Assembly: GCA_964574495.1 (NCBI GenBank)
Contig: CAZNNT010000001.1
Coordinates: 5,194 to 69,193, forward strand
DNA length: 64,000 nucleotides
Direction: 5' to 3'
Source: an uncultured Candidatus Saccharibacteria bacterium
Lineage (GTDB): Bacteria; Patescibacteriota; Minisyncoccia; HO2-45-28
The notes under the pieces were generated by a model. It saw only the letters and a list, made by a program, of their open reading frames with translations. It was not told where the DNA came from and searched no databases. The position numbers were made by a program, and so were the translations under genes. Shown piece after piece: positions 10,687 to 31,772 of the stretch (its first letter is position 1; each line of letters opens with the position of its first letter).

Positions 10687-12072
10687 CTAGGGAGCCGGAA
10701 CCATCCCCTGAAGCCAAAATGGAGCATTTTGGTCAATTGGCGCAGGAGTTGGCGGAGGTGTATAGACATTAGCCGAACCCGGGGTAGCCGGAGTCAGTTG
10801 CAACCAGAATGGAACCGGCGCAGGAGCGGCTGGAGCCGGGGTTGGAGCGGGAGTTACGGCGGGCGCTGGCGTTACTTCCGGTGTTACGGCCGGAGTTACT
10901 GGAGCGGCTGGAACCGCCGCGGCTCCAAACACTTCAGCCAGTTTCGCTCTTGTTTTCGGCCCGACAAATCCGTATCCGGCATCGCCTGCTTTGGCTACGC
11001 CATATTTAACCTGGAATTTTTCAACGGCGCGGGTTGTAAGAGAGCCGAAAAATTCTGTTTCATTTCCTGCTGAACCCACACCAGATGAAGCAATCGCCGT
11101 ATCGGCATCGGAGTTAAGCAATTGCTGGATACGCTTAACATCTTCTCCTTTTGAACCAATCGTGAGAGCGCGGTTAAAGACAGGGCTGACCGCGGCAGCG
11201 ACCGGCGAGGGTGCGGCCGGCACTACCGGCAACTCTGGAGCCGCCGGAGCCGCGGCCTCTGCAAACACTTCAGCCAGTTTCGCTCTGGTTTTCGGCCCGA
11301 CAAGTCCGTATCCGGCATCGCCTGCTTGAGCTACGCCATATTTAACCTGGAATTTTTGGACGGCTTTTTCAGAAAGCGAACCGAAGAATTCGGTTTCATT
11401 TCCTGGAGAACCAACGCCTGACGCCGCAATTACGGTGTCAGAATCAGAGTTTAACAACTGTTGAAGGCGCTTAACGTCTTCACCTTTAGAACCGATGGTT
11501 AAAGCCCTATTAAAAGCTGGGCTTACAGCCAATGCCTGGGCTGATGGCTGGGCCGCTGACGACGGAACCGCGGGTGTAGCCGGCGTTACGGTCGGTACTG
11601 CGGGTACAGCCGCAACTGCTGCGGTCTGCGAGGGAATGCTCGGCGCGCTACTTCCTCCGCCACCCCCTCCTCCGCCACCGCCTCCTCCGCCACCGCCTCC
11701 GGCAGCGCAGGTATCAGCTGAAACACTTATAGTGGAAGTTCCGAAAGGCGCGTTAGTCGGGTTGGTAACAGTTATTTTTGAACTACTGGTGGTGCAGGAA
11801 AACCCGGCCGTAATTGACCCGACTACCGTGGCGGTCAGTTTTCTGCGATTAGTTGAAGTAACTTCATAGCTTGCCCCCGGCGACATACCGACATCAAAAG
11901 AAGTGGAATTCACATCAATGTAATCGGCGTTAAAACCCGTGCCCGTAACATTTAAAGTTACGCTATTAACATCTAGATCAACATTAGTGTCAAAAGTAAA
12001 GTCGCCCAAAGCGGCCAACGCGAACATCGGTATAAAGCTGGCAGTTAAAATCGTTAGATAGATTTTTTTCAT
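10687..12072 (-). CDS. Secreted low-complexity protein with two peptidoglycan-binding-like (PG_binding_1-type) repeats and a 16-residue poly-Gly tract
   Basis: N-terminal signal/anchor (MKKIYLTILTASFIPMFALAA). Two ~115-aa repeats contain FNRALTIGSKGEDVKR(L/I)QQLLNSD ... KFQVKYGVA(Q/K)AGDAGYG(L/F)VGPKTRAKLAEVF. Pro/Ala-rich linkers and a G16 stretch are present. Confidence 0.6.
   Translation of the reverse strand: MKKIYLTILTASFIPMFALAALGDFTFDTNVDLDVNSVTLNVTGTGFNADYIDVNSTSFDVGMSPGASYEVTSTNRRKLTATVVGSITAGFSCTTSSSKITVTNPTNAPFGTSTISVSADTCAAGGGGGGGGGGGGGGGGSSAPSIPSQTAAVAAVPAVPTVTPATPAVPSSAAQPSAQALAVSPAFNRALTIGSKGEDVKRLQQLLNSDSDTVIAASGVGSPGNETEFFGSLSEKAVQKFQVKYGVAQAGDAGYGLVGPKTRAKLAEVFAEAAAPAAPELPVVPAAPSPVAAAVSPVFNRALTIGSKGEDVKRIQQLLNSDADTAIASSGVGSAGNETEFFGSLTTRAVEKFQVKYGVAKAGDAGYGFVGPKTRAKLAEVFGAAAVPAAPVTPAVTPEVTPAPAVTPAPTPAPAAPAPVPFWLQLTPATPGSANVYTPPPTPAPIDQNAPFWLQGMVPAP
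10920..11600. repeat. Two tandem ~345-bp intragenic repeats encoding the PG-binding-like modules
   Basis: A near-identical DNA segment (cttcagccagtttcgctct.gttttcggcccgacaa.tccgtatccggcatcgcctgct...) occurs at about 10935-11040 and 11270-11375, with flanking similarity. Confidence 0.6.
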
Positions 12073-12106
12073 GGGCGATAATTTAGTTTTTAATTAAACC
12101 GCTAAA

Positions 12107-12922
12107 TTATCGCGTTGCCCAAAAGTTAAGAGTGCCCCGTGGAGTAAAGGCGGCGCCGGCAAGATTGGTCAATTCAACTCCAATGGTTGCCGAACCCGTG
12201 GATGAAGCGCTGGCAATTACCATACCTACGTTATTAGGAGTGGCAGCTACAATCAGCGAGCTTGTCGCCTGAACAAAAACTCGGGTAAAGCTTGTAGTTA
12301 TTCCCGTGGCGCCAGAGCAAATAATGCCTGTTGTTGTGGTTGCAGGTATAGAAATCTGCGCGAGGTTGCAAGTTCCGAAAACCATACTTGTCAAAGCGGT
12401 TCCATCGCCAACCGTTAAAGTACCTTTCGTCGCAAAGTCGCCGTTTGAGCCGGTTGTGGTCGCAAAGCCGTTAACATATAAATTTTTGCCGACCTCAAAC
12501 TCATTCGTTGTGGAAGCGTTGCCGGTGATGATAATGTTGTCAACCGCGGCATTGCCCAAAGTGACATTGCCGTTAAGATTTGAGGCTCCGGTCACAGTCA
12601 AAGTGCCCGCAGTCTCAAAATTTCCGTTCGCGCCTGTTGTAGTGGCAAAACCGTTAACATAAAAGTTGCTGCCGACCTCAAATTCATTCGTTGTTGAAGC
12701 GTTGCCGGTGATGATAATGTTATCAGCCGCGGCATCGCCCAAAGTTACATTGCCATTTAAAGTCGTGGCTCCGGAAGCCGTAAGCGTCCCGCCCGTGTTA
12801 ACGTTTGAACCAATAGTGGTTACGCCGTAAGTGGTGAGAGCAACCAGTAAAAACGACAAAATTGTCGCCGCAATTATGCCGCTGACCTGACGAGTATCTA
12901 AAAAACTTGAAACCTTTTGCAT
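12107..12922 (-). CDS. Cell-surface tandem-repeat protein (Thr/Gly/Asn-rich, beta-helix/adhesin-like) with an N-terminal membrane anchor
   Basis: N-terminal hydrophobic anchor IIAATILSFLLVALTTYG, then two ~61-aa tandem repeats (TLT..GA..LNGNVTLG.AA.DNIIITGNASTTNEFEVG.N.YVNGFATTTG.NG.F.T.G). Confidence 0.55.
   Translation of the reverse strand: MQKVSSFLDTRQVSGIIAATILSFLLVALTTYGVTTIGSNVNTGGTLTASGATTLNGNVTLGDAAADNIIITGNASTTNEFEVGSNFYVNGFATTTGANGNFETAGTLTVTGASNLNGNVTLGNAAVDNIIITGNASTTNEFEVGKNLYVNGFATTTGSNGDFATKGTLTVGDGTALTSMVFGTCNLAQISIPATTTTGIICSGATGITTSFTRVFVQATSSLIVAATPNNVGMVIASASSTGSATIGVELTNLAGAAFTPRGTLNFWATR
12440..12805. repeat. Two tandem ~183-bp intragenic repeats
   Basis: Near-identical DNA copies (ccgttaacata.aa.tt..tgccgacctcaaa.tcattcgttgt.gaagcgttgccggtgatgataatgtt...) encode the repeated protein module. 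Confidence 0.6.
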
Positions 12923-15393: not shown

Positions 15394-16542
15394 TTACAAA
15401 AAATTCACATGCAGCGGCTTCGGTCCTGTCGCGGGCTGAATCCGCTTAATACCTCTCACATGCTCATCAAGCGCCACGCTCACATAGTGCTGAATGGGCA
15501 GTGTGCCCATCATTGTCTGGGCGTTAAAAGCGGGAGACGCCAGATAAGCCATGGCTCTCCAGTAGCGCTCCGACCGAAAGATGTCAATGAATCTCTCTTC
15601 GGTAAAGTTGCCGATATGCAGTTTTGAATATCGGGCGTTGAAAAACATCCCCGAAGGCGCCACAAGGCCGCTGCCGCTGATTTGCAGGAGAAACGCCGGC
15701 CCGTAGAAACGCCTGTACGGCATATTTCCTCCGTCGCGTATTTTATCCCATTTAACGATGACCTTCGTCTGTTCCGTGCTCATTCTTTCCGCTTGAGTCA
15801 GAAGGCCGTATAATTCCTGATATTTACTGTAATCAATGCCCAGCGAGCCCACTTCATCGTCCGAGCAATGTTTAATCACGGCATAGTCAGCGCCGAGATC
15901 CAAACCCAATTGCGCGAACGGTATGATTTCCTCTCCGAATCGGGGCATAAGCACCATCTGAATCCCAAGAGTCACTTTCAAGCCCAGTTTCCTTTTTAAT
16001 TCAACGGCGTATCTGATGTTATTCATCGCGCGGTCAAATACATATGTGTGATCTTTCGCCGGCTTTTTATGGTACATAATGGAGGTGTAACTTTCGGGCC
16101 GGCCTGCGGCAACGGTGAATCGCACCCATGTAAGATACGGGAGGACTTGCTCAATTTTATCCGGTTCCCACTCCCAGCCATTTGTCGCGTTAGCCACATC
16201 AATGCCGAGATCGGCCAGATACCGGATAAAAGGCGCGTATGCCTTTGACAAAGTGCTTTCGCCGTCCGAAACCAAAGATACGCTACGCACGCCGATTTCT
16301 TTAAAATCGTCCGCCAGACGCAGCGCAAGGTCGGGCGTGATACGTTCACGCGTCTGTGATTCCTGCATCATCGCGTAACAAAATTCGCACGAAGACCCGC
16401 AAGCGCGGGTTAACGCCATATCAACGCCCACGGGCGCTATGCGCTCGCCGGCTTCCCAGGCCTCCACGCGGTCAAAGTGATAAGCCAACTTATGCGAATC
16501 AAGAATTAAAGCGCCTTCGCGCGTCTGAACGGCTAAACTCAT
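15394..16542 (-). CDS. Radical SAM enzyme, unknown substrate
   Basis: CGSSCEFCY (CxxxCxxC) at residues 47-54, followed by the glycine-rich SAM-binding segment VSLVSDGES. No SPASM-type C-terminal cysteine cluster. The gene looks GC-rich relative to its neighbours. Confidence 0.7.
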   Translation of the reverse strand: MSLAVQTREGALILDSHKLAYHFDRVEAWEAGERIAPVGVDMALTRACGSSCEFCYAMMQESQTRERITPDLALRLADDFKEIGVRSVSLVSDGESTLSKAYAPFIRYLADLGIDVANATNGWEWEPDKIEQVLPYLTWVRFTVAAGRPESYTSIMYHKKPAKDHTYVFDRAMNNIRYAVELKRKLGLKVTLGIQMVLMPRFGEEIIPFAQLGLDLGADYAVIKHCSDDEVGSLGIDYSKYQELYGLLTQAERMSTEQTKVIVKWDKIRDGGNMPYRRFYGPAFLLQISGSGLVAPSGMFFNARYSKLHIGNFTEERFIDIFRSERYWRAMAYLASPAFNAQTMMGTLPIQHYVSVALDEHVRGIKRIQPATGPKPLHVNFL

Positions 16543-16877
16543 GACTTCACCTCCACTCCGCGCAGATTGCGCAAGGAATTGCGATCCCCCAGCGGATTCA
16601 GCCAGACAACAAGGCCCGGGTCAATATTTTCTTTCAGAAACGCTTCCAGATCCAAGAGCAAAGTGCCGCGCTTGCCGGCTGGCAGCGCCTCTCTAAGTTC
16701 CACGATAATCTCGCCGTTTTTCTTTGCCCTGATTACATTGACACTGCCTTTAAAATCTGCCGACCCGTCAATCAAAGCATCAGAAATTTTGCAGAGCCGC
16801 TCTTCATCCGTCAACCCCTGCCACTCGAAACTCGCAGATGGCGTCTCGACGTCTGCGTACTTTAGTATTTCATTCAA
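16539..16877 (-). CDS. Small hypothetical protein (112 aa), translationally coupled to the radical SAM gene
   Basis: Its stop overlaps the radical SAM start as ATGA (16539-16542). Same apparently GC-rich composition. No recognisable motif. Confidence 0.45.
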   Translation of the reverse strand: MNEILKYADVETPSASFEWQGLTDEERLCKISDALIDGSADFKGSVNVIRAKKNGEIIVELREALPAGKRGTLLLDLEAFLKENIDPGLVVWLNPLGDRNSLRNLRGVEVKS

Positions 16878-16993
16878 CGCTCATTTACCCCTTTTGAAAA
16901 AAAACTCCTCTATTAATTTAACAGCAAAAAAGAGCCGAGTGATATCTTGACAAAATATAAAAAAATATTTTAGTTTTTTTCAAGACTTTATTT

Positions 16994-17500
16994 CTAAAAT
17001 TTCAAGGTGGTTCCATTAATAGCGGCTCTTAATATTTCGGATGCGTGTGTAAAGCAACGGACAAATTTTAGCTTTCCACCTAAAGATTCGATAATTCGCT
17101 TATCTTTATTTAAACCGCTCTTTGGATTTTTTAGCCGCGGCTTTGCATCATCGCCTTTTACATAAACATCCGGTTGAATCGCTTTCATAACCTTCCACGG
17201 ACCAATATCTCCACAGATTGTAACAAAATCTACGACCTCTAATTCCGCCAGCCATTTTAACCTAATAATTTCTGGAAAAATCAATGGTCGCCTTTTAACA
17301 TCTATTTTTTTAATATATCTATCGTCCACAACCGAAACCACTAACACTTCGCCATATTTCTTGGCGTCTTGAAAATATTGAATATGGCCCCAGTGAATTA
17401 AATCAAAAACCCCATGGCAAAGAACTATGCGTTTTTTCTCACTATGAAGTTTAATAGCTATCTTTTTAAGCTGGGAAATATTCTTAATTTTGGATTTCAT
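16994..17500 (-). CDS. HIGH-motif nucleotidyltransferase (cytidylyltransferase-like; RfaE/HldE domain II-type sugar-phosphate adenylyltransferase)
   Basis: IVLCHGVFDLIHWGH is the (T/H)xGH nucleotidyltransferase signature. 168 aa. Paralogous to 25690..26178 and to the N-terminus of 18337..19863. Confidence 0.7.
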   Translation of the reverse strand: MKSKIKNISQLKKIAIKLHSEKKRIVLCHGVFDLIHWGHIQYFQDAKKYGEVLVVSVVDDRYIKKIDVKRRPLIFPEIIRLKWLAELEVVDFVTICGDIGPWKVMKAIQPDVYVKGDDAKPRLKNPKSGLNKDKRIIESLGGKLKFVRCFTHASEILRAAINGTTLKF

Positions 17501-17628
17501 AAATTATCGTTCACAAAAGGGAATAATTTCTAAATACCATATTAAACTCTAACAAAAATAAACTCCCGATACAATATCGGGAGAAATTTTGAATAAAACA
17601 CACTTATTAGAACTGCTTTAATAAACCA

Positions 17629-18279
17629 TTAATAAGATATTTTTAAAATCCCCACCTCCTTTGCCACCTCATCAAGCATCCTGGAAGAAATTAGGTCAAA
17701 TTTTTTTCTACCATCATCCCTATCTTTTAAAATGTCCGTCAAATCAAAAATGCAATTTATAGAATATTCACACAAACCCCACTCTCCTCTTATACCATCT
17801 TCAGGAATATCTTCTGAATTGATCTGTACAATGCCACCAAAAAAAGTATTGTTCAGTAAAGAGTTTAAAATCCATTCAACAAGAACGATTTTAATTTTTG
17901 AGGGATGAACTACCAAACCAATTTCTTCCTCCATCTCCCTTGCCATTGCGTTTTTTGCTAGATCTTTTGAAAAACAAATGAGCGGATCTTCAGAAATCCT
18001 TCCACCCGCCGGCTCAATTGTCTCACTTTCAACTGCAACCCTAAACTGTTTAACCATTACTATCTTCCACCTATTATCAAAAGGATCGTGAAAATAAGGA
18101 ACAACCACGCAACCATCAGCCCCATAAGCAACGCCGCGACTAGAAATGAATGTTCTTTTTAAAGTGCCGGAATTTACTTCAACCGTCATTTGGGGCCATC
18201 TATAAGTTATAAATTTATCTTGAAACCCAGGCTTATTGGAACACAAAGTTGTTTCTCCAACCTTCCTAAAACTACCCAT
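17629..18279 (-). CDS. NUDIX hydrolase (ADP-sugar/nucleotide-sugar pyrophosphatase-like)
   Basis: Nudix box PAGGRISEDPLICFSKDLAKNAMAREMEEEIG. Confidence 0.7.
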   Translation of the reverse strand: MGSFRKVGETTLCSNKPGFQDKFITYRWPQMTVEVNSGTLKRTFISSRGVAYGADGCVVVPYFHDPFDNRWKIVMVKQFRVAVESETIEPAGGRISEDPLICFSKDLAKNAMAREMEEEIGLVVHPSKIKIVLVEWILNSLLNNTFFGGIVQINSEDIPEDGIRGEWGLCEYSINCIFDLTDILKDRDDGRKKFDLISSRMLDEVAKEVGILKISY

Positions 18280-18336
18280 TCCACATCCTCCCCTTATTTA
18301 GGCAGCAAAGAGCTCCTATAAGCATAGCACTTTTTT

Positions 18337-19863
18337 CTATTCAAGCAAGTAGCCGATTCTGCCGAATAGTTCTTCGCGCTCAACCGAGTTTTTGTTGCCG
18401 ACAATATCCACCGCGATTGACGCGGCAACGCTTCCCACAAACGAGGTTAAATCAATATCAAATCCCGCCGCGACGCACGGCGCGGAAATGCACAAAAAGG
18501 CATCACCAGCTCCAACGGCGTCAGTAATTCTGCCCGCAAGCGAGGGAATTCTTTTTATTTTTCCGTTTTTATCGCGAGCTATAAGGCCGAGGTGGCCCAA
18601 AGTTACAACCATCTGCTTTGGAGATATCTTTTCAAAAAGTTTCTCGGCAACTCTTTCAACGGGTGAATAATCGTCGTGCGCCGCGAGCCGCGCCTCCAAT
18701 TCATCCATAGAGACATAATCGGCTTTTGAATATTTCGTAATATAGTTAAAACCGGCATTTCCGCTGTTTGTCTGCGCGGTTGCCGCAAGAAATTTGGACT
18801 TAGACAAAATAAGTTTTATTAAATCGGGCGAGAATAAGCCGTGTCCGTAGTCCACCGCCACAACCAAATCAAAGTCGGCTATTTTATTTGAGAGATAACT
18901 TTTTATTTTATCTTTTACCGAGGCCGGGATGAACCCCTTGTCAAACTCGTATTCTTCAAAAAATTTCACAAAAGAACCCTCGTCAAGAAAACGCCTCTTG
19001 ACGATTGAGCGTTGGTTGGGATAAGAAAAAATTTTTGTTTTTATGTTCGGCTTCAACCTTTTAAGCGCGTTCTTTTCGGAACTGCCGTCTCCAAACATTG
19101 TTACCAGCTCAACATTTCCGCAAACAGAAGCAAGGTGGTTGGCGCACGCCAAAATGCCGCCGGCGAATTCTTCTTTTTTCTTGAAGTGAGTGCTTACAAC
19201 ATGCGATTTTGCCGGTTTGCCCAAAGGGGAAACATACCTGTATTCGTCTATTATGGACTCTCCGATTACCAGCGCTTTTATTTTCTTTAATTTTTCCAAA
19301 TTCATTAAAATATCCGCGACATTGTATTTTTTCTTAAAATTGGAAAGGAAGGCGGTTGCCTCGTCCGGCACCGCTCCAAAATGCTTGTTCAAAATGTTTT
19401 CTGAAGGAATTTGCAGGGTTTTGGTAAAAACCATTTTCCCGCCAAAACCCTCAACTATTCTCTTATCCAAACCAACGCCGCTTTCGGGAGTAGTAAGCTG
19501 TGATTTGGAATCGGCGCCTTTAACATAAATATCGGGCCGCAGTTTTTTAATAATTTCCCACGGGCCGAAGTCATTGCAAAAAACGGCGTAATCAACGCAG
19601 TCCAATAAGGCGATTGAATTGGCTCGCACAATTTCGTTAAAAACCGGGCGCTTCAATCCTTTGCGGACAAAGTCATCCGAAATAATTGAGACAATTAAAA
19701 TATCTCCCAGTTTTTTGGCATTAGCCAGATAATGAAGATGGCCGTGATGGAACAAATCAAAAGCGCCGTGAGCCAAAACAATTTTTTTGCCCGCGTCTTT
19801 ATATTTGCGAATAAGCGGCTTTAGATTTTCTATGTTTTTAATCTTTGAATTAAATTCGGGCAT
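18337..19863 (-). CDS. Bifunctional sugar-phosphate nucleotidyltransferase (N-terminal) / PfkB-family sugar kinase (C-terminal); HldE-like with inverted domain order
   Basis: The N-terminus has IVLAHGAFDLFHHGH (HxGH). The C-terminal ~330 aa are a ribokinase/PfkB fold with the DAVGAGDAF anion-hole motif. Confidence 0.7.
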   Translation of the reverse strand: MPEFNSKIKNIENLKPLIRKYKDAGKKIVLAHGAFDLFHHGHLHYLANAKKLGDILIVSIISDDFVRKGLKRPVFNEIVRANSIALLDCVDYAVFCNDFGPWEIIKKLRPDIYVKGADSKSQLTTPESGVGLDKRIVEGFGGKMVFTKTLQIPSENILNKHFGAVPDEATAFLSNFKKKYNVADILMNLEKLKKIKALVIGESIIDEYRYVSPLGKPAKSHVVSTHFKKKEEFAGGILACANHLASVCGNVELVTMFGDGSSEKNALKRLKPNIKTKIFSYPNQRSIVKRRFLDEGSFVKFFEEYEFDKGFIPASVKDKIKSYLSNKIADFDLVVAVDYGHGLFSPDLIKLILSKSKFLAATAQTNSGNAGFNYITKYSKADYVSMDELEARLAAHDDYSPVERVAEKLFEKISPKQMVVTLGHLGLIARDKNGKIKRIPSLAGRITDAVGAGDAFLCISAPCVAAGFDIDLTSFVGSVAASIAVDIVGNKNSVEREELFGRIGYLLE

Positions 19864-19975
19864 AAATTAAATAAATACGGTTAAAATAAAAATACCGCAT
19901 ATTTAATCTATCATGAAATCTTTTCACAAATCAATATTAACAAAATGTCAATTTTATGACCTTATATAAAAGAGA

Positions 19976-20007
19976 AAGCCGTCCCTTTGGGACGGCTTTA
20001 TTTTCTT
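19976..20007 (-). terminator. Rho-independent terminator downstream of the E1-beta gene
   Basis: AGCCGTCCC-TTT-GGGACGGCT stem-loop flanked by T-rich runs on both strands. Confidence 0.65.
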
Positions 20008-20013: not shown

Positions 20014-20994
20014 TTAGCGGTTGGCGGCAAGCCGGAACGCCCGCGTCGCGATATCCGAAGAGCTCGGATGGTAATTTCCAACAAGATATTTGCTCGCGGG
20101 GCAAGGCCAGCCCGGAAGGCCGATGCGCGCCGGCGGAGCTTTCAACTTATCAAGAGCGCCTCTTTCCAAAACCGCGCAAATGACCTCGCTTGAAACCCCG
20201 AATTCCTTCCAGCCGATATCAACTACGAGCAGTCGCCCCGTTTTATGCGCTGATTCCGCAATCGTATCAATATCCAGAGGCCTGACCCAGCGCAAATCTA
20301 TCACTTCGGCCGAGACGCCTTTTTCTTTAAGAATTTCGGCCGCCTTAAGCGCGTCTTTAACAGCAACGGACAAGGCGACGATCGTCACATCGTCTCCCTC
20401 CGCAACAACGCTGGCGCCGAACGGAGCCCGATAATACGCTTCCGGCACAAATCCCTCTTCATCAAGAAGCAGACAGTGCTCCAAAATGATTACCGGCTCA
20501 TCGTCGCTAATAGCCGTTATAATCATCCCTTTGGCATCGGCCGGGGTTGCCGGCATTCCGACTTTAACTCCCGGAAAATGGGCAAAGATTGCCTGCAAAC
20601 TCTGCGAATGCTGAACTCCTTCCCCGGTTTTTCGGGCGATGAAGCTCAAAATGGCAATCGGAATTTTATGCTTTCCGCCGGAAGCAAAGCCGAGTTTGGC
20701 CGCCTGGTTAAACATCTGATCCATAGCCAGAAGCATAAAATCGTTACGCTGGTGAATTAAAACCGGCCGAAGGCCGTTTAAAGCCGCGCCAATCGCAATG
20801 CCGGTCAAACCGTTTTCGGAAAGAGGCGTATCAACCACCCTATGCTCTCCGAACCTTTTGAAAGCCGGCAGCACTTGTCCGTAAACGCCCCGAATTCCAT
20901 CAACTCCCTCGCCCATCAAAAAGACGTTTTCATCTCTTTCCATAGACATAAGGAGCCCCGAAGAGGCCGCTTCTTTATAGGTCATTTTAGCCAT
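20014..20994 (-). CDS. Thiamine-diphosphate-dependent E1 component beta subunit (pyruvate/acetoin dehydrogenase E1-beta, transketolase-like)
   Basis: Start MAKMTYKEAASSGL chosen; it overlaps the E1-alpha stop by 8 nt. Typical E1-beta/transketolase pyrimidine-binding and C-terminal domains (GEGVDGIRGVYG, PIAILSFIARKTGEGVQHSQS, EVIDLRWVRPLD). Confidence 0.8.
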   Translation of the reverse strand: MAKMTYKEAASSGLLMSMERDENVFLMGEGVDGIRGVYGQVLPAFKRFGEHRVVDTPLSENGLTGIAIGAALNGLRPVLIHQRNDFMLLAMDQMFNQAAKLGFASGGKHKIPIAILSFIARKTGEGVQHSQSLQAIFAHFPGVKVGMPATPADAKGMIITAISDDEPVIILEHCLLLDEEGFVPEAYYRAPFGASVVAEGDDVTIVALSVAVKDALKAAEILKEKGVSAEVIDLRWVRPLDIDTIAESAHKTGRLLVVDIGWKEFGVSSEVICAVLERGALDKLKAPPARIGLPGWPCPASKYLVGNYHPSSSDIATRAFRLAANR

Positions 20995-21958
20995 GGCGCT
21001 TGCCACAAACATCCGGCGGCGACGGTTCTGGGCTTCCCAAAGCAAATTTCTCCGCACGATTGATCTCGTCATTGATTTCGGCCTCCATGTCCCGCGTCTC
21101 TTTTTCTGAAAAAGCGCCGCTATGCATTTTTAAAGGATCTCGAGCCAGCCATTTTTCGCCTTCCTCACGGCTTCTATACCCCAAGTCCCAGTCCTCGCCA
21201 ACGCCCCAATGCTCTTTCGAACGGTAAGTACAAATTTCCAAAAAAGCCGGAGCGCGTCCTCTGGCGCGCGCCGCCAGTTCTTGTGCCGCTTTGTAAACGG
21301 CCAAGACATTATTTCCGTCTTCTTCTCCGACTCTCAAAGCCATGATGCCGTGCGGCCGCACCCGCTCAATGATTGAGGCGTACGGCTGACGTTTTAATAT
21401 CGGCGAGTGGGTCGCGTAAAGATTGTTTTCGCAAACAAACAATACCGGCAGGCGATGAACGGAAGCAAAATTCAAACTTTCCCAAAAAATCCCTTCTTCC
21501 ACCGCGCCGTCGCCAAAAAAGGCCGCCGCGATTTTATCTTCTTTTTTGATTTTAAAAGCAAGGGCAATGCCCACGGCAATCGCGATACTCGCGCCGACTA
21601 TGGGGGCCGCGACCGTAAAACCCGCTTCGTCATCGGTCAGATGCATCGTTCCGCCGTATCCTCCGGCGCAGCCGGTAGCGCGTCCGCAAAGTTCGGCTAG
21701 CATGTTGGCCAAATCGCCGCCTTTGGCGAGGTAATGCCCGTGGCAGCGATGAGTTGAGACAACTTTATCCTGTTTATCCAGTACGCTCATCACGCCCACG
21801 GCGGCCGCTTCCTGACCGATGGAAAGGTGCACCGGAGCTATAATATGTCCGGATTTAAAAAGTTCGGTTATTTTCTCTTCAGCTCTTCGTATGCGAAGCA
21901 TCCGGTAAAAAAGGACTTTTAGAATTTCTTTCGGCATTACATGACTCTCCTTTTTCAA
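20987..21958 (-). CDS. Thiamine-diphosphate-dependent E1 component alpha subunit (pyruvate/acetoin dehydrogenase E1-alpha)
   Basis: TPP-binding motif GDGAVEEGIFWESLNFASVHRLPVLFVCENNLYA; upstream HRCHGHYLAKGG and GGYGGTMH. SD AAAGGAGAG precedes the ATG. Confidence 0.85.
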   Translation of the reverse strand: MKKESHVMPKEILKVLFYRMLRIRRAEEKITELFKSGHIIAPVHLSIGQEAAAVGVMSVLDKQDKVVSTHRCHGHYLAKGGDLANMLAELCGRATGCAGGYGGTMHLTDDEAGFTVAAPIVGASIAIAVGIALAFKIKKEDKIAAAFFGDGAVEEGIFWESLNFASVHRLPVLFVCENNLYATHSPILKRQPYASIIERVRPHGIMALRVGEEDGNNVLAVYKAAQELAARARGRAPAFLEICTYRSKEHWGVGEDWDLGYRSREEGEKWLARDPLKMHSGAFSEKETRDMEAEINDEINRAEKFALGSPEPSPPDVCGKRHG

Positions 21959-21974: not shown

Positions 21975-22010
21975 AATAATAAAAAAGGGCAGCCAAGTCA
22001 ATGGCTGCCG
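21975..22010 (-). terminator. Rho-independent terminator downstream of the DegT gene
   Basis: Minus-strand read GGCAGCC-ATTGACTT-GGCTGCC followed by CTTTTTTATTATTTT. Confidence 0.7.
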
Positions 22011-22020: not shown

Positions 22021-23154
22021 TTATTTCTGCATATTTACAAAATCGGCGATGCATTCGGCAACATAGACAATCTGAGCTTTAGTCAAATACTGATGCACCG
22101 GCAGGGTAAGGATTTCAAACGACTGGCGCTCGCAATTCGGAAAATCCCCGAGCTTATAACCAAGATGGCCTGCCGCTTCCTGCAGGTGAATAGGTATCGG
22201 GTAATGCACCTTAGTATCAATACCGCGCTCTTCTAAAAGAAACTTTTGCAGCTCATCGCGTTTGCCGTCAAGAACCCTGATTACATAAGTGTGATAAACT
22301 TGCTTTTTGTTCGCGGGCCTCGGGGGCAAAACAACATGTGGATGAAACGGCTTGAGCAGCTCATCATAAAGCGCGGCGTTGGCAATTCTTTTTTCGGTAA
22401 TATCCTCGGCATGTCCCACGAGACAATTTAAAACGGCGGCCGCGGTTGAATGCATTCGCTCGTTTACGGAAAAAAATTCAACCTCATCACGGTTTTTCAT
22501 GCCGTGATTGCGCCATTTGGCGACCTTATCCGCGAGCCATTTGTGGTCGGTTACAACCGCTCCGGCATCGCCCCATCCGTTAAGATTTTTCAGCGGGTGG
22601 AAACTGAACTCTCCGGCGATACCGAGATGGCCGACTCTTTTTCCGTCAACTTCGGCGCAAACCGCCTGAGCCGCGTCCTCAACGACATAAAGATTCCGCC
22701 TTTCGGCAATATTGTTGATCGCGGTCATGTCGGCCGGACAACCGGTCAAATGCACGGGAAGAATTGCTTTTGTGCGCCCGGTTATCGCTTTCTCAATCTT
22801 GCTGACGTCAATTTGATACTGCTCGTCAACATCCACAAAAACAACTCTTGCTTTGACCAAATCAATGGCCGCCGCGGTTGCGATAAAACTATTGGGAACG
22901 GTAATCACCTCATCTCCCGGGCCGATTTCAAGCGCCTCTAAAATAGCGATAAGAGCGGCCGTGCCTGAGTTTAAGCCAATGGCGTATTTCGCGCGGCATA
23001 GCGCGGCAAATTTTTCTTCAAACTCGCCAACCGAACGGCCTAAAGTGAAATCGCCTCTTTTGGCTACTTTATCAATGGCCGCAAGAATTTCTGCTCTTTT
23101 CTCCTTACAAAACTGAGTCGTCAGATACGAATACGGGACTTTTATTTTACTCAT
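22021..23154 (-). CDS. DegT/DnrJ/EryC1/StrS-family PLP-dependent sugar aminotransferase
   Basis: N-terminal LGRSVGEFEEKFAALC, a glycine-rich SGTAALIAILEAL segment and a DAAQA-type site; 377 aa. Confidence 0.85.
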   Translation of the reverse strand: MSKIKVPYSYLTTQFCKEKRAEILAAIDKVAKRGDFTLGRSVGEFEEKFAALCRAKYAIGLNSGTAALIAILEALEIGPGDEVITVPNSFIATAAAIDLVKARVVFVDVDEQYQIDVSKIEKAITGRTKAILPVHLTGCPADMTAINNIAERRNLYVVEDAAQAVCAEVDGKRVGHLGIAGEFSFHPLKNLNGWGDAGAVVTDHKWLADKVAKWRNHGMKNRDEVEFFSVNERMHSTAAAVLNCLVGHAEDITEKRIANAALYDELLKPFHPHVVLPPRPANKKQVYHTYVIRVLDGKRDELQKFLLEERGIDTKVHYPIPIHLQEAAGHLGYKLGDFPNCERQSFEILTLPVHQYLTKAQIVYVAECIADFVNMQK

Positions 23155-24185
23155 ACTTTTCCCTCCAGGATTAGATTTTTCATCACCGCGATATTGCGGT
23201 ATTTCGGGTTTTCCGGATCGGGAATGCGCCCGTCAAAAAACGCCCGGCATAAATTGTGAATGGCTGATTTGATTCCGAATTCCGGCAGCCAGCCAAGCTC
23301 CCGCTTGATTTTTTCAGAGGAAATGTGATAAGAACGCAAATCGTTTGTCGAAACAACTTCAATCTCAACAGTTCCTCTGCCGGTATATCTTTGCACGATT
23401 TCTTTGACCGTTTCGGCTATTTGCATGACGGTAAAATTATCAAAGCCGGCGTTATAAACCTTTCCGCCGATTATTTCACGCGGCTCGCTGACCAATCGCG
23501 CGTAAAGGTTGGCCATATCCTCAATATGGATATTCGGCCTTTTCTGCTCCCCGCCAGAAACCTTAATTTTATTTTCGGTCAAAGCCGAAATCGTCAGATC
23601 GTTAACCACGACATCCAGACGCAGGCGCGGCGACCAGCCGCAAACGGTTGCCGGACGCAAAATCACCCATTCTATTCTATCCTGCGGAATCATTTGCAAT
23701 TCCATCTCGCAAAACGCTTTGAATTTGGAATAATCGGTTATCGGCTCAAGCGCCAAATCCTCCGTAACTTCAACATCTCCCTTAACCCCGTAAACGCTGG
23801 AAGACGAGGCGTAAATAAAACGCCTGACTTTTGCCGCAAGCGCGGCGTCCAAAACCCGCCGGAAAGCGTCATAGTTTATGGAACGCCCAAGTCGGCGATC
23901 AAGCTCAAAGCTCGGATCATTTGAAAGGCAGGCCAGATGAATAACCGCGTCGCAATCGAACATCAAATTTTGCAAGTCGCAATTTCGGATATCTCCTTTA
24001 AAAAGCTGGAGAGAACTATCGGTGTCATACGGACCTATCGGCCTTGTCAAACCGTTAAAAACGTTTTCACCGAACCAAAAAGTGTCAATTACGCTTACAG
24101 GATAATGAAGAGCCAAAAGTTTTGGCACAAGAGCGCTGCCGACATAGCCGGCTCCGCCGGTAATTAAGACCCTTTTTCTTTCCAC
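23151..24185 (-). CDS. NAD-dependent epimerase/dehydratase (extended SDR)
   Basis: TGGAGYVGS Rossmann motif, a catalytic SSS...YxxxK region (YSKFKAF), 344 aa. A 4-nt overlap with the downstream DegT gene suggests an operon. Confidence 0.8.
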   Translation of the reverse strand: MERKRVLITGGAGYVGSALVPKLLALHYPVSVIDTFWFGENVFNGLTRPIGPYDTDSSLQLFKGDIRNCDLQNLMFDCDAVIHLACLSNDPSFELDRRLGRSINYDAFRRVLDAALAAKVRRFIYASSSSVYGVKGDVEVTEDLALEPITDYSKFKAFCEMELQMIPQDRIEWVILRPATVCGWSPRLRLDVVVNDLTISALTENKIKVSGGEQKRPNIHIEDMANLYARLVSEPREIIGGKVYNAGFDNFTVMQIAETVKEIVQRYTGRGTVEIEVVSTNDLRSYHISSEKIKRELGWLPEFGIKSAIHNLCRAFFDGRIPDPENPKYRNIAVMKNLILEGKV

Positions 24186-24325: not shown

Positions 24326-24913
24326 TTATTCGCCTCTAAATTTGTCAACAAAATCCAAAATCCAATTGCATATGAAAAGATGCGCGCTTTCCACGTGGCG
24401 GTATGAATCGGACGGAATGTAAAAATTAATATCGCCCAGTTTCCGCAAAGGATTGTCCTGGCCGAATCCCGACATGGTTACGACGCCCGCGCCCTTGCCC
24501 CGCATTGCGCCAACGGCGTTGATAATGTTTTGCGACTTGCCGGAGCTGGATATGGCAATTAAAAGGTCTTTTTTTGTTCCCAGAATTTTAAGGGGCTGGG
24601 AAAAAATATTTTCATACCCGACATCATTTCCCATACAGGTAAGCAAAGAATGTTCCGTTGGCGAAAAAGCCGCGATGCCGTGCGTCCGCATAAAATCTGT
24701 CGCTTGATGGCTCGCAATGGCGGCGCTTCCGCCGTTGCCAACGAACACAATCCGCCCCCCTTCTTTATTTGCCTGCAAAATTGACTTAATAGAGCCCTTG
24801 ACCGCATCAGCCAGATCCATATCAAAGCCACTCTTGTCCGTTGTTTTAACGCTTCGTAAACACTCTGCGAATCCATCCAGGTATGAGTGCAAATCCTTTT
24901 TACTAAAATCCAT
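24326..24913 (-). CDS. gmhA: SIS-domain sedoheptulose-7-phosphate isomerase (phosphoheptose isomerase)
   Basis: GGRIVFVGNGGSAAIASH SIS motif about 40 aa from the chosen start (MDFSKKDL). About 195 aa. A second SIS-typical ISSSGKSQNIINA segment is present. The longer track ORF would overlap the GT2 gene. Confidence 0.7.
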   Translation of the reverse strand: MDFSKKDLHSYLDGFAECLRSVKTTDKSGFDMDLADAVKGSIKSILQANKEGGRIVFVGNGGSAAIASHQATDFMRTHGIAAFSPTEHSLLTCMGNDVGYENIFSQPLKILGTKKDLLIAISSSGKSQNIINAVGAMRGKGAGVVTMSGFGQDNPLRKLGDINFYIPSDSYRHVESAHLFICNWILDFVDKFRGE

Positions 24914-24924
24914 AATATAAATAA

Positions 24925-25683
24925 TTAAACCGTCGTCCCCGGCTTTTTGTTTCCTGATTTCGAGGGAAAATATACGCGAAAAAATAGTTTTCTCGCAGTG
25001 CCGGCAATTTCCAAAACATTTTTCCATTTTAAAAGTCGTGATTTTCTCAAACCCATTTTTCCATAACCTTGTTCTCTTATATACATCGGCACCTCAATAT
25101 AAGAAGCATTCTTAATTTTAAGCAACTGCACCAATATCTCCATCATAAAAGACGGGCCGTTGCTTGACATCGCGACATTTTCCAAAAGAGGCCTTCTAAA
25201 AAAACATGTTCCGTTAAAATATTTAAGATTGGCGCCGAACATTATATTAAATATCGCGGTGTATGCTAAAGAAAGAATCCTTCGCGAGAACGGCCTAACC
25301 TGCGGGTTTGCGGTATAAGGAATAATAATATCTTTTTGACCGATTTGGCTAAAAATATTATCCATAGTTTCCGAAAGAGTCTCATTGTCCCCCGGAAAAT
25401 ACCCAACATAATTTTTTGAGGATTCTAAAACTCCGCGCCGAAAACAATATCCGATTCCTTGATTTGGATTATTGCGGATTTTCAAAATTCGGCTGTCTTT
25501 GGCGCATAGGCCATCCATAATTTCGCCGGTTCTGTCTTTACTGCCGTCATCAATTAAAATAATTTCAAAGTCGTCAAAACCGTTTTTTTTAAGATGTTCC
25601 GTAACCATGTTCACGGTATCCGGCACATTTTTTTCTTCATTGAGCGCGGGAATAATAACCGATATTGAGGGCTTCAGAGCCAT
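24925..25683 (-). CDS. Family 2 glycosyltransferase (polyprenyl-phosphate sugar transferase/DPM1-like)
   Basis: VIIPALNEE and IILIDDGSKD (DxD context) are typical of GT2_2 enzymes; 252 aa. Confidence 0.75.
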   Translation of the reverse strand: MALKPSISVIIPALNEEKNVPDTVNMVTEHLKKNGFDDFEIILIDDGSKDRTGEIMDGLCAKDSRILKIRNNPNQGIGYCFRRGVLESSKNYVGYFPGDNETLSETMDNIFSQIGQKDIIIPYTANPQVRPFSRRILSLAYTAIFNIMFGANLKYFNGTCFFRRPLLENVAMSSNGPSFMMEILVQLLKIKNASYIEVPMYIREQGYGKMGLRKSRLLKWKNVLEIAGTARKLFFRVYFPSKSGNKKPGTTV

Positions 25684-25689
25684 AAATAA

Positions 25690-26178
25690 TTATTTATTCT
25701 CCAAAATCCGGTTAATAATATCCGTTGTGGATAATTTTTCATCTTTGGTGTATAAAATTTCTCCGCCTATAGAACGCATCGCTTCTCTTTCTACCGCTAT
25801 GCCCGGCGTATCTTTATTTATATAATCCGGCCCCTTAATGTAATAATCGGGCTTAAAAATTTTTATTAACTCAACGGCCGTTTTGTAAGGGCTTACCATC
25901 GTAAAATCCACTGCTTTGATATTTGATACCATATAAGCTCTTTGCTCTTCATTAAAAATGGGTCTATAAGGGCCTTTTCTTTTATTTACAAATTTATCGC
26001 AGGTAACGGCCGCCACCAAAACATCGCAAAGTTTTTTTGCCGAATTAAAGTGCATTATATGCCCCGCGTGCAGCAGGTCATAGCCGCCGCAGCATAAACC
26101 CACGGTTTTGCCCTCTTTTTTTAAATTTCCGATAACTTTTTTTAATTCCTGGAGCTTGAGTGAGCCCAAAAATTTCAT
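25690..26178 (-). CDS. HIGH-motif nucleotidyltransferase (RfaE domain II/cytidylyltransferase-like), third paralog
   Basis: VGLCCGGYDLLHAGH signature; 162 aa. Confidence 0.7.
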   Translation of the reverse strand: MKFLGSLKLQELKKVIGNLKKEGKTVGLCCGGYDLLHAGHIMHFNSAKKLCDVLVAAVTCDKFVNKRKGPYRPIFNEEQRAYMVSNIKAVDFTMVSPYKTAVELIKIFKPDYYIKGPDYINKDTPGIAVEREAMRSIGGEILYTKDEKLSTTDIINRILENK

Positions 26179-26231
26179 ATAGATATAATACGGTTTTTCT
26201 TAAAAAACGCAAGAAACAGCTTAATAAAAAA

Positions 26232-26269
26232 ACACCCGTGATAAAAACGGGTGTTCCTTTTTTTATTTT
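26232..26269 (-). terminator. Rho-independent terminator (bidirectional)
   Basis: ACACCCGT-GATAAAA-ACGGGTGT flanked by A6 upstream and TCCTTTTTTTATTTT downstream. Confidence 0.75.
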
Positions 26270-27270
26270 CCCAGATGTTGGAACCACGCTTTGGTGGCTT
26301 TCTCAATTCCTTTGGGTGTCCAGACCGGAGCGCCGCGCCAATAATCAATGTTTTTCAGAAGTTCTTTAACGCCTTCCTCAAACGAAACCTCCGGCGACCA
26401 GCCAAGCTTTGATTTAATCTTTGCGATATCGGCGCAAGTTACATCCGGCTCACCGGGCCTTTTCGGCAAATTCACGGTTTCTTTCGCCCCCAAAAGCCGG
26501 ACTATTTCATTTACGCTCCGAGGCGCGCCCGAGCCGACATTGAAAATTTCTCCCGAAATATCCGATTCAGCCGCGGCCAGAAACGCGCGAGCGACATCTG
26601 AAACGAAAACAAAATCCCTTTTTTGCTCCCCGTCGCCGACCACTGTCAGCGGCTTATTATAAATCAATTGCGCCAGAAATATTCCGAAGACCGCGCCGTA
26701 AGCTCCGGAAGTGCGCGATCGCGGACCGTAAACATTGAACATACGCAAAGAAATTGCCGGCAAGCCGTAAACCTTGTTCCACTGCATCACCAATTCTTCG
26801 CCAAGACGCTTGGTCAAAGCATAGGGATATTGCGGTGAAATTTCAGCGCTTTCCGGAGTCGGATAAATATCGGGAATGCCGTAGCAGGAAGAGGAGGCCG
26901 CGTAGATAAATCTTTTAACACCGTACTGGATAGAGGCCTCTAAAACGTTCAGCGTTCCCTCAACATTGTTTTCAAAGTAATGTCTCGGAAACTCAATGGA
27001 CGGTACTATATCGGCTAGGCCGGCCAGATGAAAAACCCAATCGGCTCCGGCAAATGCCGACGCCACTGTCATATCGCGAATACTCATTCTAATAAAGCTC
27101 ATATTCTTGGCTTCAGGCAAAAGTTCCATCTGCCGAATATTTTCAAAACGGCCCGTAGTCAGACTATCCACCACAATAACTTTATGGCCTTTTTTAAGAA
27201 GCAGTTCAACCAAGTGGCTGCCGATAAAACCGGCCCCGCCCGTCACAACAGCTGTTTTCCGCTCTTCCAT
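26263..27270 (-). CDS. NAD-dependent epimerase/dehydratase (extended SDR; possible nucleotide-sugar 4,6-dehydratase or 4/6-epimerase)
   Basis: Start MEERKTAVVTGGAGFIGSHLV is preceded by AGGAAAGGAGAAGAA. SSSCYG...YALTKRLGEE (SxnYxxxK). The 32 upstream codons in the track ORF lack an SD. Confidence 0.8.
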   Translation of the reverse strand: MEERKTAVVTGGAGFIGSHLVELLLKKGHKVIVVDSLTTGRFENIRQMELLPEAKNMSFIRMSIRDMTVASAFAGADWVFHLAGLADIVPSIEFPRHYFENNVEGTLNVLEASIQYGVKRFIYAASSSCYGIPDIYPTPESAEISPQYPYALTKRLGEELVMQWNKVYGLPAISLRMFNVYGPRSRTSGAYGAVFGIFLAQLIYNKPLTVVGDGEQKRDFVFVSDVARAFLAAAESDISGEIFNVGSGAPRSVNEIVRLLGAKETVNLPKRPGEPDVTCADIAKIKSKLGWSPEVSFEEGVKELLKNIDYWRGAPVWTPKGIEKATKAWFQHLGK

Positions 27271-29375: not shown

Positions 29376-30182
29376 TTATATCGCGGTCCAGCCGCCGTCA
29401 ACTATGAGATTATGGCCGGTGACATATCGGGATTCGTCCGATAAAAGAAAAATCAGCGGCCCGCAAATTTCTTCGGGACGGGCAAAACGCCCCAGGGGCA
29501 CTCTTTTGGAAAAATTGCTCACGAACGCTTTATTTCGCATTCTTTGGTCTTCGTCAAAAAAAATCCCGCCGGGGCTCAAGGCGTTCACGCGGATATTGTG
29601 CCTGCCGAGAAGCGCGGCAAGATATCTCGTAAAATTGATAAGACCGCCTTTGTGAAAAGCGTAATATTCGGCGTTGGCTTCTTTCGCGCCGGGATAAATT
29701 GAGGGGTCGTGCGCCACCACGCCGTAAATGGAGCCGATCTTGACTATGACTCCGGATTTTTGTTTTTTCATTATTTTAGCCGCTTCGCGCGTCATTAAAA
29801 AATTTCCGTTGACATTGACGTCCGTCGCCTTTCTGAAATTGGCCAAACTTCGCGAGGTAAAACTTTCAGCCGTCGGACGATGCACCGCGTTATTCACCAG
29901 GCCGTCAAGGCGCTTAAATTTTTTGATGGCGGCGTCCAGACATTCTTTAACCGATTTTTCATCGGTTATATCAAGCTCGCGGGCAAATAAACGCCGGCTG
30001 TCCTTCGCGATTTTATTTTTCAGTTTTAGGCATCCGGCATAATCAAGGTCGGCCAGAATCACATTGGCTCCGGCATTATATAAAGCTCCGGCAAAATGGC
30101 TGCCGAGCATGCCCGACGCTCCGGTCAGCAGGATTGTTTTGCCGCCCAAACGATAATCAGACGAGATGCGTTTCATTTTCAA
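29376..30182 (-). CDS. Classical short-chain dehydrogenase/reductase (SDR)
   Basis: TGASGMLGSHFA cofactor motif, NNAV, and the catalytic YAFHKGG (YxxxK). Confidence 0.8.
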   Translation of the reverse strand: MKMKRISSDYRLGGKTILLTGASGMLGSHFAGALYNAGANVILADLDYAGCLKLKNKIAKDSRRLFARELDITDEKSVKECLDAAIKKFKRLDGLVNNAVHRPTAESFTSRSLANFRKATDVNVNGNFLMTREAAKIMKKQKSGVIVKIGSIYGVVAHDPSIYPGAKEANAEYYAFHKGGLINFTRYLAALLGRHNIRVNALSPGGIFFDEDQRMRNKAFVSNFSKRVPLGRFARPEEICGPLIFLLSDESRYVTGHNLIVDGGWTAI

Positions 30183-31739: not shown

Positions 31740-31772
31740 TATCACGCCTCGGCGATTTGTTGCCGGGGTTTT

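Follow-up and report, generated by a model that had tools for sequence, protein, structure and literature searches.

A stand-alone E1-type thiamine diphosphate enzyme pair in a conserved heptose-type surface-sugar cassette is a candidate nucleotide-sugar carboligase

The window analyzed here is a stretch of 64,000 nucleotides from an uncultured Candidatus Saccharibacteria bacterium (assembly GCA_964574495.1, contig CAZNNT010000001.1, positions 5,194 to 69,193 of the forward strand), and its minus strand encodes at 20014-21937 the α and β subunits of a thiamine diphosphate (ThDP)-dependent E1-type enzyme (E1αβ). An earlier reading of the sequence, referred to below as the original prediction, had taken the pair for an enzyme that attaches an activated two-carbon (C2) unit to a keto-sugar nucleotide, with AviB1/AviB2 of avilamycin biosynthesis as precedent. 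The best reading of the evidence assembled here is that E1αβ, a ThDP enzyme of the heterotetramer type, stands on its own outside any 2-oxoacid dehydrogenase complex and modifies a nucleotide-activated sugar. The balance of probability tips slightly towards its being a ThDP carboligase whose reaction joins a pyruvate-derived C2 unit to an oxidized nucleoside diphosphate (NDP)-heptose. The pair is part of a cell-surface sugar cassette that is conserved in many bacterial phyla, and the pathway around it is of the heptose type (a reversed-domain HldE-like protein, a GmhA-like SIS protein and a Cj1427-like short-chain dehydrogenase/reductase, SDR); neither point had been made in the original prediction.

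The two genes and the signals that accompany them are as follows.

20987-21937, minus strand: E1α-like ThDP-binding subunit, 316 aa from the ATG at 21937 (Pfam E1_dh, 1.9e-59)
20014-20994, minus strand: E1β-like subunit, 326 aa, beginning MAKMTYKE (Pfam Transket_pyr, 1e-25, and Transketolase_C, 9e-32)
21947-21952, minus strand: Shine-Dalgarno sequence AAGGAG, read from the sequence, 9 nt 5' of the E1α ATG
21988-22009, minus strand: terminator-like hairpin with a T-run between the DegT gene and E1α (8-bp stem with 6 GC pairs; tail CTTTTTTATT)
19975-19999, minus strand: terminator-like hairpin 3' of E1β (11-bp stem, 7 pairs GC)

The mechanically called open reading frame (ORF) of E1α begins at a TTG at 21958, and the ATG at 21937 was taken as its proper start. 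The stop of the α gene and the start of the β gene overlap by 8 nt (ATGGCTAA). The domain architecture is that of the heterotetrameric 2-oxoacid dehydrogenase E1 superfamily, and the ThDP motif GDGAVEEG...ENN is present in E1α (G142-D143-G144 ... N171-N172), so that the intact, translationally overlapping pair with ThDP-binding and β-subunit motifs described in the original prediction was recovered in full. The expression signals that it had assigned to the pair fared unevenly: the Shine-Dalgarno sequence and the terminator-like hairpins are present, but the only promoter-like match 5' of the pair agrees at 9 of 12 positions and overlaps the hairpin, and promoter-like matches are not enriched in the region (4 observed versus 2.5 ± 1.5 in shuffled sequences), which leaves the claim of an own promoter weak. 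Likewise, the pair was said to form a GC-rich block, and its GC content (0.51-0.535) does exceed the window mean of about 0.445, but the radical SAM gene, the DegT gene and the methyltransferase gene are equally GC-rich (0.50-0.535); the pair is therefore not uniquely rich and does not constitute a lone GC island. Other cassette genes, namely the small nucleotidyltransferases, the Nudix-like ORF and the GT2 gene (16800-18300 and 24900-26200), have low GC content (0.32-0.39), and this mosaic suggests that the locus was assembled from different sources.

Alignment with solved structures was used to assess the catalytic apparatus. Both subunits are similar to the E1 components of solved pyruvate dehydrogenases (PDH; human PDHA1/PDHB, 1NI4, and Geobacillus PdhA/B, 1W85), with E values of 6.7e-45 for α and 5e-65 for β. 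Residues αH37, R64, H66 and H243 align to H63, R90, H92 and H263 of human PDHA1, and βE60 and βH129 to E59 and H128 of human PDHB, among which E59 is the cofactor-activating glutamate and H263 and H128 are active-site histidines. The catalytic histidines had been considered as a possible sign of lost lipoyl acylation; both are conserved and hence uninformative in this respect, and the idea was dropped. Scores against the curated NCBIfam models of PDH E1 fell below the cut-offs for both subunits (E1α, 271.3 vs 393.85 for TIGR03182; E1β, 285.6 vs 321 for NF006667). As the original prediction had stated, no E2, E3 or lipoyl protein lies nearby: Pfam searches of the 58 window ORFs of at least 100 aa returned no E2, E3 or lipoyl-domain match. 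The pair is likewise unaccompanied in the window by acetoin operon partners (acoC E2, acoL E3, butanediol/acetoin genes), and no credible E2 or E3 adjoins it in 80 related genome loci. Because its scores lie below the cut-offs, no E2/E3 is found in the window or in related loci, and the pair belongs to a separate sugar-associated clade described next, sequence comparison supports setting it apart from the catabolic E1s of PDH and acetoin dehydrogenase.

Phylogenetic placement was evaluated against E1 pairs linked to an E2, and mostly also to an E3, taken from annotated plasmids (Priestia, Enterococcus, C. difficile, S. fungicidicus, Sphingobium and Paenibacillus), with Thermus 'acoA' and the fused RenH as further references. 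Trees were inferred by neighbor joining with 200 bootstraps, and a larger α tree of 98 sequences with 100. Sugar-associated E1α sequences formed a single clade devoid of any reference in 72% of replicates (77% in the 98-sequence tree), and the E1β tree reproduced the same split at 96%. The acetoin-type operons of Enterococcus and C. difficile fell outside this clade, which excludes every E2-linked reference, and firm placement inside catabolic acetoin or pyruvate dehydrogenases, one part of the outcome that would have spoken against the original prediction, was not seen. Within the clade is nested an actinomycete subgroup (86.5% in α, 99.5% in β), and three Streptomyces sequences also nest there; a search that started from one of them brought up many actinomycete relatives, and the gene contexts of three of these are described below. 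The separation from PDH and acetoin-type references thus holds, and the kinship with AviB1-type enzymes proposed in the original prediction is drawn from actinomycete members defined by their genomic context.

The same division is apparent at the residue level. P35, Y69, E147 (within GDGAxxEG), R183-Q184 and G245 in α, and R83 and R121 in β, vary little or not at all among the sugar-associated sequences and occur in no reference. In the alignment, αP35 lies at human F61, R183-Q184 at the end of phosphorylation loop B, and G245 in loop A beside H263, where the window pair reads EHWGxGEDW; βR83 lies three residues before the F85 equivalent, and βR121 in the loop leading to the H128 equivalent. 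A further candidate, βR174, was dropped from the signature, as the window protein has a cysteine there. The elements that hold the signature residues line the active-site channel of the lipoyl arm. Remodeled lipoyl-arm loops with gained arginines would suit an anionic NDP-sugar as second substrate, and the signature fits this reading.

Actinomycete members of the clade, which carry the residue signature, point to the type of substrate involved. In Micromonospora (locus L138) E1αβ is found amid genes for an NDP-hexose 2,3-dehydratase, a thymidylyltransferase-type nucleoside triphosphate transferase, DegT, a sugar C-methyltransferase, a 3,5-epimerase, a GFO oxidoreductase and an EryCIII-like glycosyltransferase; the setting in Microtetraspora (L140) is a similar thymidine diphosphate (TDP)-deoxysugar cluster, and in Streptomyces (L139) the pair lies in a polyketide/glycosyltransferase cluster. 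The only plausible E1 substrate in the TDP-deoxysugar clusters would be an NDP-keto-sugar or its glycoside.

Conservation of the surrounding genes was assessed at two levels. In protein searches, in which about 8,000 family members were scored per search and the 120 best matches listed, relatives of 55-73% identity were abundant, the closest relatives among the matches listed were proteins from metagenome-assembled genomes of Patescibacteria, and every source name in that list was 'pyruvate/acetoin dehydrogenase E1'. A recurrent order was observed on long Patescibacteria contigs: SDR, SIS, B12-radical SAM, reversed HldE, SDR, DegT, nucleotidyltransferase, NUDIX, E1α, E1β, GT2. A scan restricted to one genome per species retrieved 80 loci (44-72% identity) from Patescibacteria, Planctomycetota, Elusimicrobia, Rokubacteria/Methylomirabilota, Nitrospinae, Nitrospirae, Alpha-, Beta-, Gamma- and Deltaproteobacteria, Chlamydiae, Bacillota, Chloroflexota, Myxococcota, Omnitrophota, Leptospiraceae, archaea and Streptomyces. 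The window proteins were compared with all ORFs of these loci, 42 of which are flanked by at least 6 kb on both sides. E1β follows E1α in 95% of these well-flanked loci, and of a marker set comprising reversed HldE, SIS, the Cj1427-like SDR, the epimerase-like SDR and DegT, at least two are present in 33 and at least three in 30 of the 42. The well-flanked cassette loci span about 15 phyla, from Patescibacteria to Alphaproteobacteria, and include archaea. Annotated examples from cultured bacteria also exist: on a plasmid of Azospirillum oryzae the cassette takes the form of a 12-gene operon (SDR, SDR, PfkB [reversed HldE], SIS, SDR, E1α, E1β, DegT, DegT, hypothetical, radical SAM, NUDIX), and pDMC1 of Solidesulfovibrio magneticus carries GT2, GT2, radical SAM, NUDIX, kinase, E1α, E1β, Fcl-like, DegT, SDR, nucleotidyltransferase, one further gene and a PMT-like GT-C gene. 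In each cassette subtype, the gene directly upstream of the ThDP enzyme encodes either a Cj1427-like SDR or a SPASM radical SAM enzyme; a likely carbonyl-forming enzyme in this position fits a sequence of oxidation followed by C2 addition.

Two variations were noted among these loci. A Patescibacteria single-cell genome (L028) and several Myxococcota (L047, L056, L066, L084) encode the two subunits as one fused polypeptide of about 640-720 aa. In Parvibaculaceae/Xanthobacteraceae loci (L083, 14420-15070; L038, L040), a PIG-L de-N-acetylase gene lies directly 3' of E1α-E1β-DegT-DegT and hints at an N-acetylated intermediate.

In the window itself, E1αβ sits inside a 12-gene minus-strand sugar cassette (15.4-27.3 kb), and the DegT, the two SDR, the GmhA-like, the GT2 and the nucleotidyltransferase neighbors named in the original prediction were all confirmed with Pfam on the same strand. 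The genes around the pair are listed below.

26263-27270, minus strand: SDR resembling 4-epimerases; across phyla, no other partner of reversed HldE is as conserved (54-64% identity)
25690-26178, minus strand: small cytidylyltransferase-like (HxGH) nucleotidyltransferase (Pfam CTP_transf_like)
24925-25683, minus strand: small GT2 glycosyltransferase, polyprenyl-phosphate sugar synthase-like (Pfam)
24326-24925, minus strand: SIS-domain GmhA-like sugar-phosphate isomerase (Pfam SIS_2; NCBIfam gmhA 92 bits, below cut-off)
23151-24185, minus strand: SDR, candidate maker of the keto acceptor (nearest solved structure 6VO6, E 7e-35, full length)
22021-23154, minus strand: DegT-family sugar aminotransferase (Pfam 3.9e-102)
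18337-19863, minus strand: reversed-domain HldE-like protein, 508 aa, with N-terminal nucleotidyltransferase and C-terminal PfkB kinase (Pfam, NCBIfam)
17629-18279, minus strand: Nudix-box-like protein, 216 aa, REMEEEIGL, without a Pfam match
16994-17500, minus strand: small cytidylyltransferase-like nucleotidyltransferase (Pfam)
15394-16542, minus strand: radical SAM enzyme of the cassette (Pfam)
Last-listed neighbor, after the radical SAM enzyme, minus strand: Wzy_C/TPR protein

Most of these genes have counterparts in the related loci. Orthologs of the DegT protein (41-55% identity) flank E1αβ in other phyla, and its nearest solved structures are nucleotide-sugar 3-aminotransferases: 3uwc, a C. 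burnetii enzyme and the best match, QdtB, DesV (2oga) and WbpE. The 6VO6-like SDR lies two genes upstream of E1α in the window, and orthologs about 50% identical to it occur directly upstream of E1α in proteobacterial operons. Homologs of the GT2 gene are found directly 3' of E1β in many related loci, full-length alignments of the reversed HldE-like protein were obtained in more than 40 loci, and radical SAM orthologs of about 50% identity lie downstream of DegT-DegT in proteobacterial cassettes. Orthologs of the nucleotidyltransferase at 16994-17500 are located between DegT and NUDIX in the Patescibacteria loci L002, L004 and L006, where weak-NUDIX ORFs beside E1α are 33-44% identical to the Nudix-box-like ORF; the latter showed no detectable similarity to the Azospirillum NUDIX gene and is therefore designated only as Nudix-box-like. 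The mechanical SIS ORF extends about 100 nt into the GT2 gene (24925-25027), and its true start is probably an internal Met codon near 24925.

Between about 13 kb and 64 kb, nearly all of the window is given over to glycan biosynthesis genes. A complete-looking nonulosonic-acid (pseudaminic/legionaminic-type) set adjoins the cassette at 29376-43101 on the minus strand and comprises genes for an SDR, PseB-like and PseC-like proteins, a PHP + ATP-grasp fusion, a NeuC-like protein, NeuB, a GFO oxidoreductase, a CMP-sugar synthetase-like protein, an unknown 434-aa protein, a HisF + glutamine amidotransferase fusion and a carbamoyltransferase. A second amino-deoxysugar module is found at 50542-53918 on the plus strand (C-methyltransferase with Methyltransf_13/14, DegT and guanosine diphosphate (GDP)-mannose 4,6-dehydratase), and an IS200-like Y1 transposase gene lies within the glycan region (48550-49251, minus strand). 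Two secreted or surface-type proteins encoded just outside the locus (10687-12922, minus strand) are possible glycosylation targets: the first contains a 16-residue Gly run, two peptidoglycan-binding-like repeats and Pro/Ala-rich linkers, and the second Thr/Gly-rich repeats and an N-terminal transmembrane segment.

A route that would accommodate these genes can be outlined. The GmhA-like SIS isomerase, the reversed HldE-like kinase/nucleotidyltransferase and a phosphatase would generate an NDP-heptose, which the Cj1427-like SDR (23151-24185) would oxidize to an NDP-keto-heptose. E1αβ would then convert pyruvate, the presumed donor, into the hydroxyethyl-ThDP carbanion and add it to a carbonyl of the NDP-keto-heptose, at ring C4 or at a terminal aldehyde, leaving a C-acetyl (two-carbon) branch or extension. 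The C2 product might be processed further by DegT, the radical SAM enzyme and the second SDR, in an order that is itself conjectural, before the small GT2 enzyme would load the sugar on a lipid carrier for surface glycosylation by a GT-C-type enzyme of the window. With respect to the two-carbon attachment claimed originally, the non-catabolic nature of the E1, its sugar-associated clade and its relatives in TDP-deoxysugar clusters all speak for it, and the placement of a C2 branch on a 4-keto sugar is a step that we infer.

Several considerations weigh against the assignment of E1αβ as a nucleotide-sugar carboligase. Support in the α tree is moderate (72%) and neighbor joining is a simple method; in addition, the related loci were retrieved as best matches to the query, which favors a coherent clade. 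The window E1α is 44-49% identical to E1α proteins of sugar clusters, only slightly more than the 42% for Priestia PDH and 43% for Thermus acoA. The proposed oxidation step leans on the match to structure 6VO6, presumably that of Cj1427, the GDP-heptose C4-dehydrogenase. The clade is not exclusively sugar-directed, for on plasmid pSGRIFU1 of S. griseofuscus (L088, 14007-19537) a member lies beside a 1,103-aa condensation-domain protein, acyl carrier proteins and a type II polyketide synthase and not beside sugar genes, which may represent a different use of the same type of E1. Orthology to AviB1, Pau11 and Plm8 is argued by analogy, from genomic context alone, and these names are absent among the 120 best matches listed in the protein searches. 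We know of no biochemistry on any member of the sugar-associated clade, and the reaction of AviB1-type enzymes rests on genetics, its chemistry not having been reconstituted (PMC4425429, PMC4802897, PMC10338323). The occurrence of split transketolases in related cassettes also counts here, and is considered below together with the explanation that it favors.

Alternative functions were weighed against the same body of evidence. A conventional catabolic E1 belonging to a pyruvate, acetoin or branched-chain 2-oxoacid dehydrogenase complex, placed in a glycan locus by chance and served by E2/E3 encoded elsewhere, would agree with the names that the sources give to the whole family among the matches listed and with the retention of all catalytic residues, including the two histidines of reductive acylation, and the E2/E3 scan of the source genome covers the 64-kb window. 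Scores under the curated PDH cut-offs, synteny with sugar genes over about 15 phyla without E2/E3, a clade and signature apart from six E2-linked E1s, and the presence of the cassette on plasmids in Azospirillum and Solidesulfovibrio nevertheless make this explanation highly improbable. The enzyme could also act in the same sugar pathway through different ThDP chemistry, such as decarboxylation of an ulosonic acid to a shorter 2-deoxy-aldose, acetoin-type C-C cleavage of an α-hydroxyketone sugar, use of another 2-oxoacid donor, which would lengthen the branch, or provision of an acyl unit for N-acylation. Such activities would be in keeping with E1 enzymes being 2-oxoacid decarboxylases, with the NeuB-type nonulosonic-acid genes that adjoin the window cassette and recur in L001, L012, L070 and L104, and with the tight coupling of E1αβ to DegT-DegT, sometimes with a PIG-L deacetylase; moreover, both donor and acceptor of E1αβ are known by inference only. 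NeuB, however, is present in only 12% of the well-flanked loci, the actinomycete relatives reside in TDP-deoxysugar clusters without ulosonic acid, no oxidant of the kind that N-acyl transfer from hydroxyethyl-ThDP would need is evident, and published genetics of such pairs favor C2 addition, and we hold these activities to be unlikely, if still deserving of some weight.

The third alternative places E1αβ upstream of the SIS isomerase in precursor supply, as the builder of a ketose phosphate, for instance sedoheptulose-7-phosphate from a hydroxypyruvate-type donor and an aldose phosphate. It arises from a metagenome scan seeded with reversed HldE, which yielded 11 loci with a constant core of epimerase-like SDR, reversed HldE and SIS. 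E1αβ was found in two of the 11 (the long loci L100 and L113), and it was at first regarded as an optional add-on; this view was revised, since split transketolases (N and C parts, Pfam-confirmed) occupy the equivalent place in L102, L104, L108, L110, L119, L120 and L121, that is, in most of the others, so that a two-subunit ThDP enzyme of varying type is a near-constant companion of reversed HldE. The split transketolases are flanked by SPASM radical SAM enzymes. Condensations on aldose phosphates of the DXS and transketolase kinds are well established; the transketolases could simply supply sedoheptulose-7-phosphate, and E1αβ, by analogy, a ketose phosphate. Loci L004 and L010, however, hold both E1αβ and a split transketolase, which indicates that the two are not simple substitutes. 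In many loci, furthermore, E1αβ-DegT(-DegT) or E1αβ-GT2 occurs with no SIS or HldE within 10 kb, the actinomycete members lie in clusters for TDP-glucose-derived deoxysugars that need no ketose phosphate, and a pyruvate donor would lead to a 1-deoxy-ketose that a GmhA-type isomerase cannot convert. Precursor supply hence appears quite improbable, and C2 addition to an oxidized NDP-heptose is the interpretation retained for E1αβ.

If correct, this interpretation has practical consequences. As long as the family is named after PDH, metabolic reconstructions will credit organisms, including reduced-genome Patescibacteria, with a PDH capacity that they may lack; the signature αP35/Y69/E147/R183-Q184/G245 plus βR83/R121 offers a marker that separates sugar-tailoring from complex-bound E1 pairs. 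To our knowledge, E1-type ThDP carboligation onto nucleotide sugars has never been reconstituted, and a soluble, widespread E1 family would provide an entry point to sugar carboligation and perhaps a biocatalyst for making branched sugars or sugars of higher carbon number. E1-like pairs that attach C2 units are already known from a few antibiotic pathways; a full-text literature search found no published account of a pan-phylum, heptose-linked, surface-glycan E1 clade with a residue signature.

The closest functional precedents come from antibiotic biosynthesis. AviB1/AviB2 (avilamycin), Pau11/Pau12 and Plm8/Plm9 (paulomycin) and EvdU5/EvdS3 (everninomicin) are credited with attaching a C2 unit from pyruvate as a branch at C4 of a keto-deoxysugar, on the basis of gene inactivation and combinatorial work (PMC4425429, PMC4753412, PMC4802897, PMC10338323). 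Like these, the window pair is a two-subunit E1 without E2/E3 among NDP-sugar genes, and it shares clade and residue signature with the L138 and L140 pairs, which occur in AviB1-type settings. It differs in that its route leads to a surface glycan through heptose-type steps (SIS, reversed HldE, Cj1427-like SDR) and not to a TDP-6-deoxyhexose antibiotic sugar, in the spread of its cassette over many phyla, and in an α subunit that is 44-49% identical to the actinomycete members. The aldgamycin literature, pursued as a further lead, contained nothing usable. In yersiniose A biosynthesis, the ThDP/flavin adenine dinucleotide enzyme YerE transfers an acetyl group onto cytidine diphosphate-4-keto-3,6-dideoxyglucose, and is the sole biochemically proven case (cited in PMC4753412 and PMC10338323). 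The proposed decarboxylation of pyruvate and attack of hydroxyethyl-ThDP on a sugar ketone (C4 in YerE) are shared with the window pair, but YerE is a single-chain, acetolactate-synthase-like protein of a different fold and family, and Pfam detected no TPP_enzyme_N, M or C domain in the window pair.

With respect to PDH and acetoin E1 (α2β2), the pair shares the fold, the ThDP motif, the activating glutamate and both active-site histidines, and departs from PDH E1 in lacking E2/E3, scoring below equivalog cut-offs, having remodeled loops A and B and extra β arginines, and forming a separate clade. In Campylobacter jejuni, Cj1427 oxidizes GDP-heptose at C4 to a reactive 4-keto intermediate that is passed to epimerases and reductases (PMC10680097). 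The window cassette resembles this route in its proposed heptose nucleotide and its SDR, and differs from it in that the C. jejuni route has no ThDP enzyme, uses HddA/HddC in place of a reversed HldE and ends in reduction instead of C-C bond formation or amination. The comparison to Cj1427 passes through the 6VO6 match, whose identity we presume.

The O-antigen ('virenose') region of Coxiella burnetii provides the nearest match in gene content. It encodes a phosphoheptose isomerase (CBU0674), two SDRs (CBU0676/CBU0677) and CBU0678, an HldE of 'unconventional, reversed domain arrangement' which is indispensable for phase I lipopolysaccharide (LPS) (PMC5843353) and whose role is still called unclear in recent work (PMC13252051, PMC13552124). 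CBU_0686, 0692 and 0693 in the same region were described as horizontally acquired 'pyruvate dehydrogenases' and read as a source of acetyl-CoA for fatty acids (PMC5423948), and the gene set is reported to have been acquired horizontally from Alphaproteobacteria (PMC5843353, PMC5423948, PMC13252051). The same unusual combination of reversed HldE and E1-like genes is thus present, as matched by the published gene descriptions alone, which suggests that the Coxiella E1-like genes are orthologous to those of window-type cassettes and that the clade probably includes this virulence locus. The Coxiella papers, in contrast to the function favored here, place the E1 genes in fatty-acid and acetyl-CoA metabolism, a reading of the kind that the PDH name invites. 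It is possible, though on present evidence rather doubtful, that the cassette product is an uncharacterized amino sugar composed of NDP-heptose and two pyruvate carbons, branched or chain-extended to nine carbons, made without a NeuB-type aldolase and displayed on surfaces in about 15 phyla, and that this is also the product of Coxiella CBU0674-0678 plus CBU0692/0693 needed for virulent phase I LPS. A nine-carbon or branched amino-heptose and a connection to Coxiella would, if borne out, add to the interest of the system. The cassette connects a question from a risk-group-3 pathogen, namely which product CBU0678 and its neighbors supply for phase I LPS, with the more easily handled plasmids of Azospirillum and Solidesulfovibrio.

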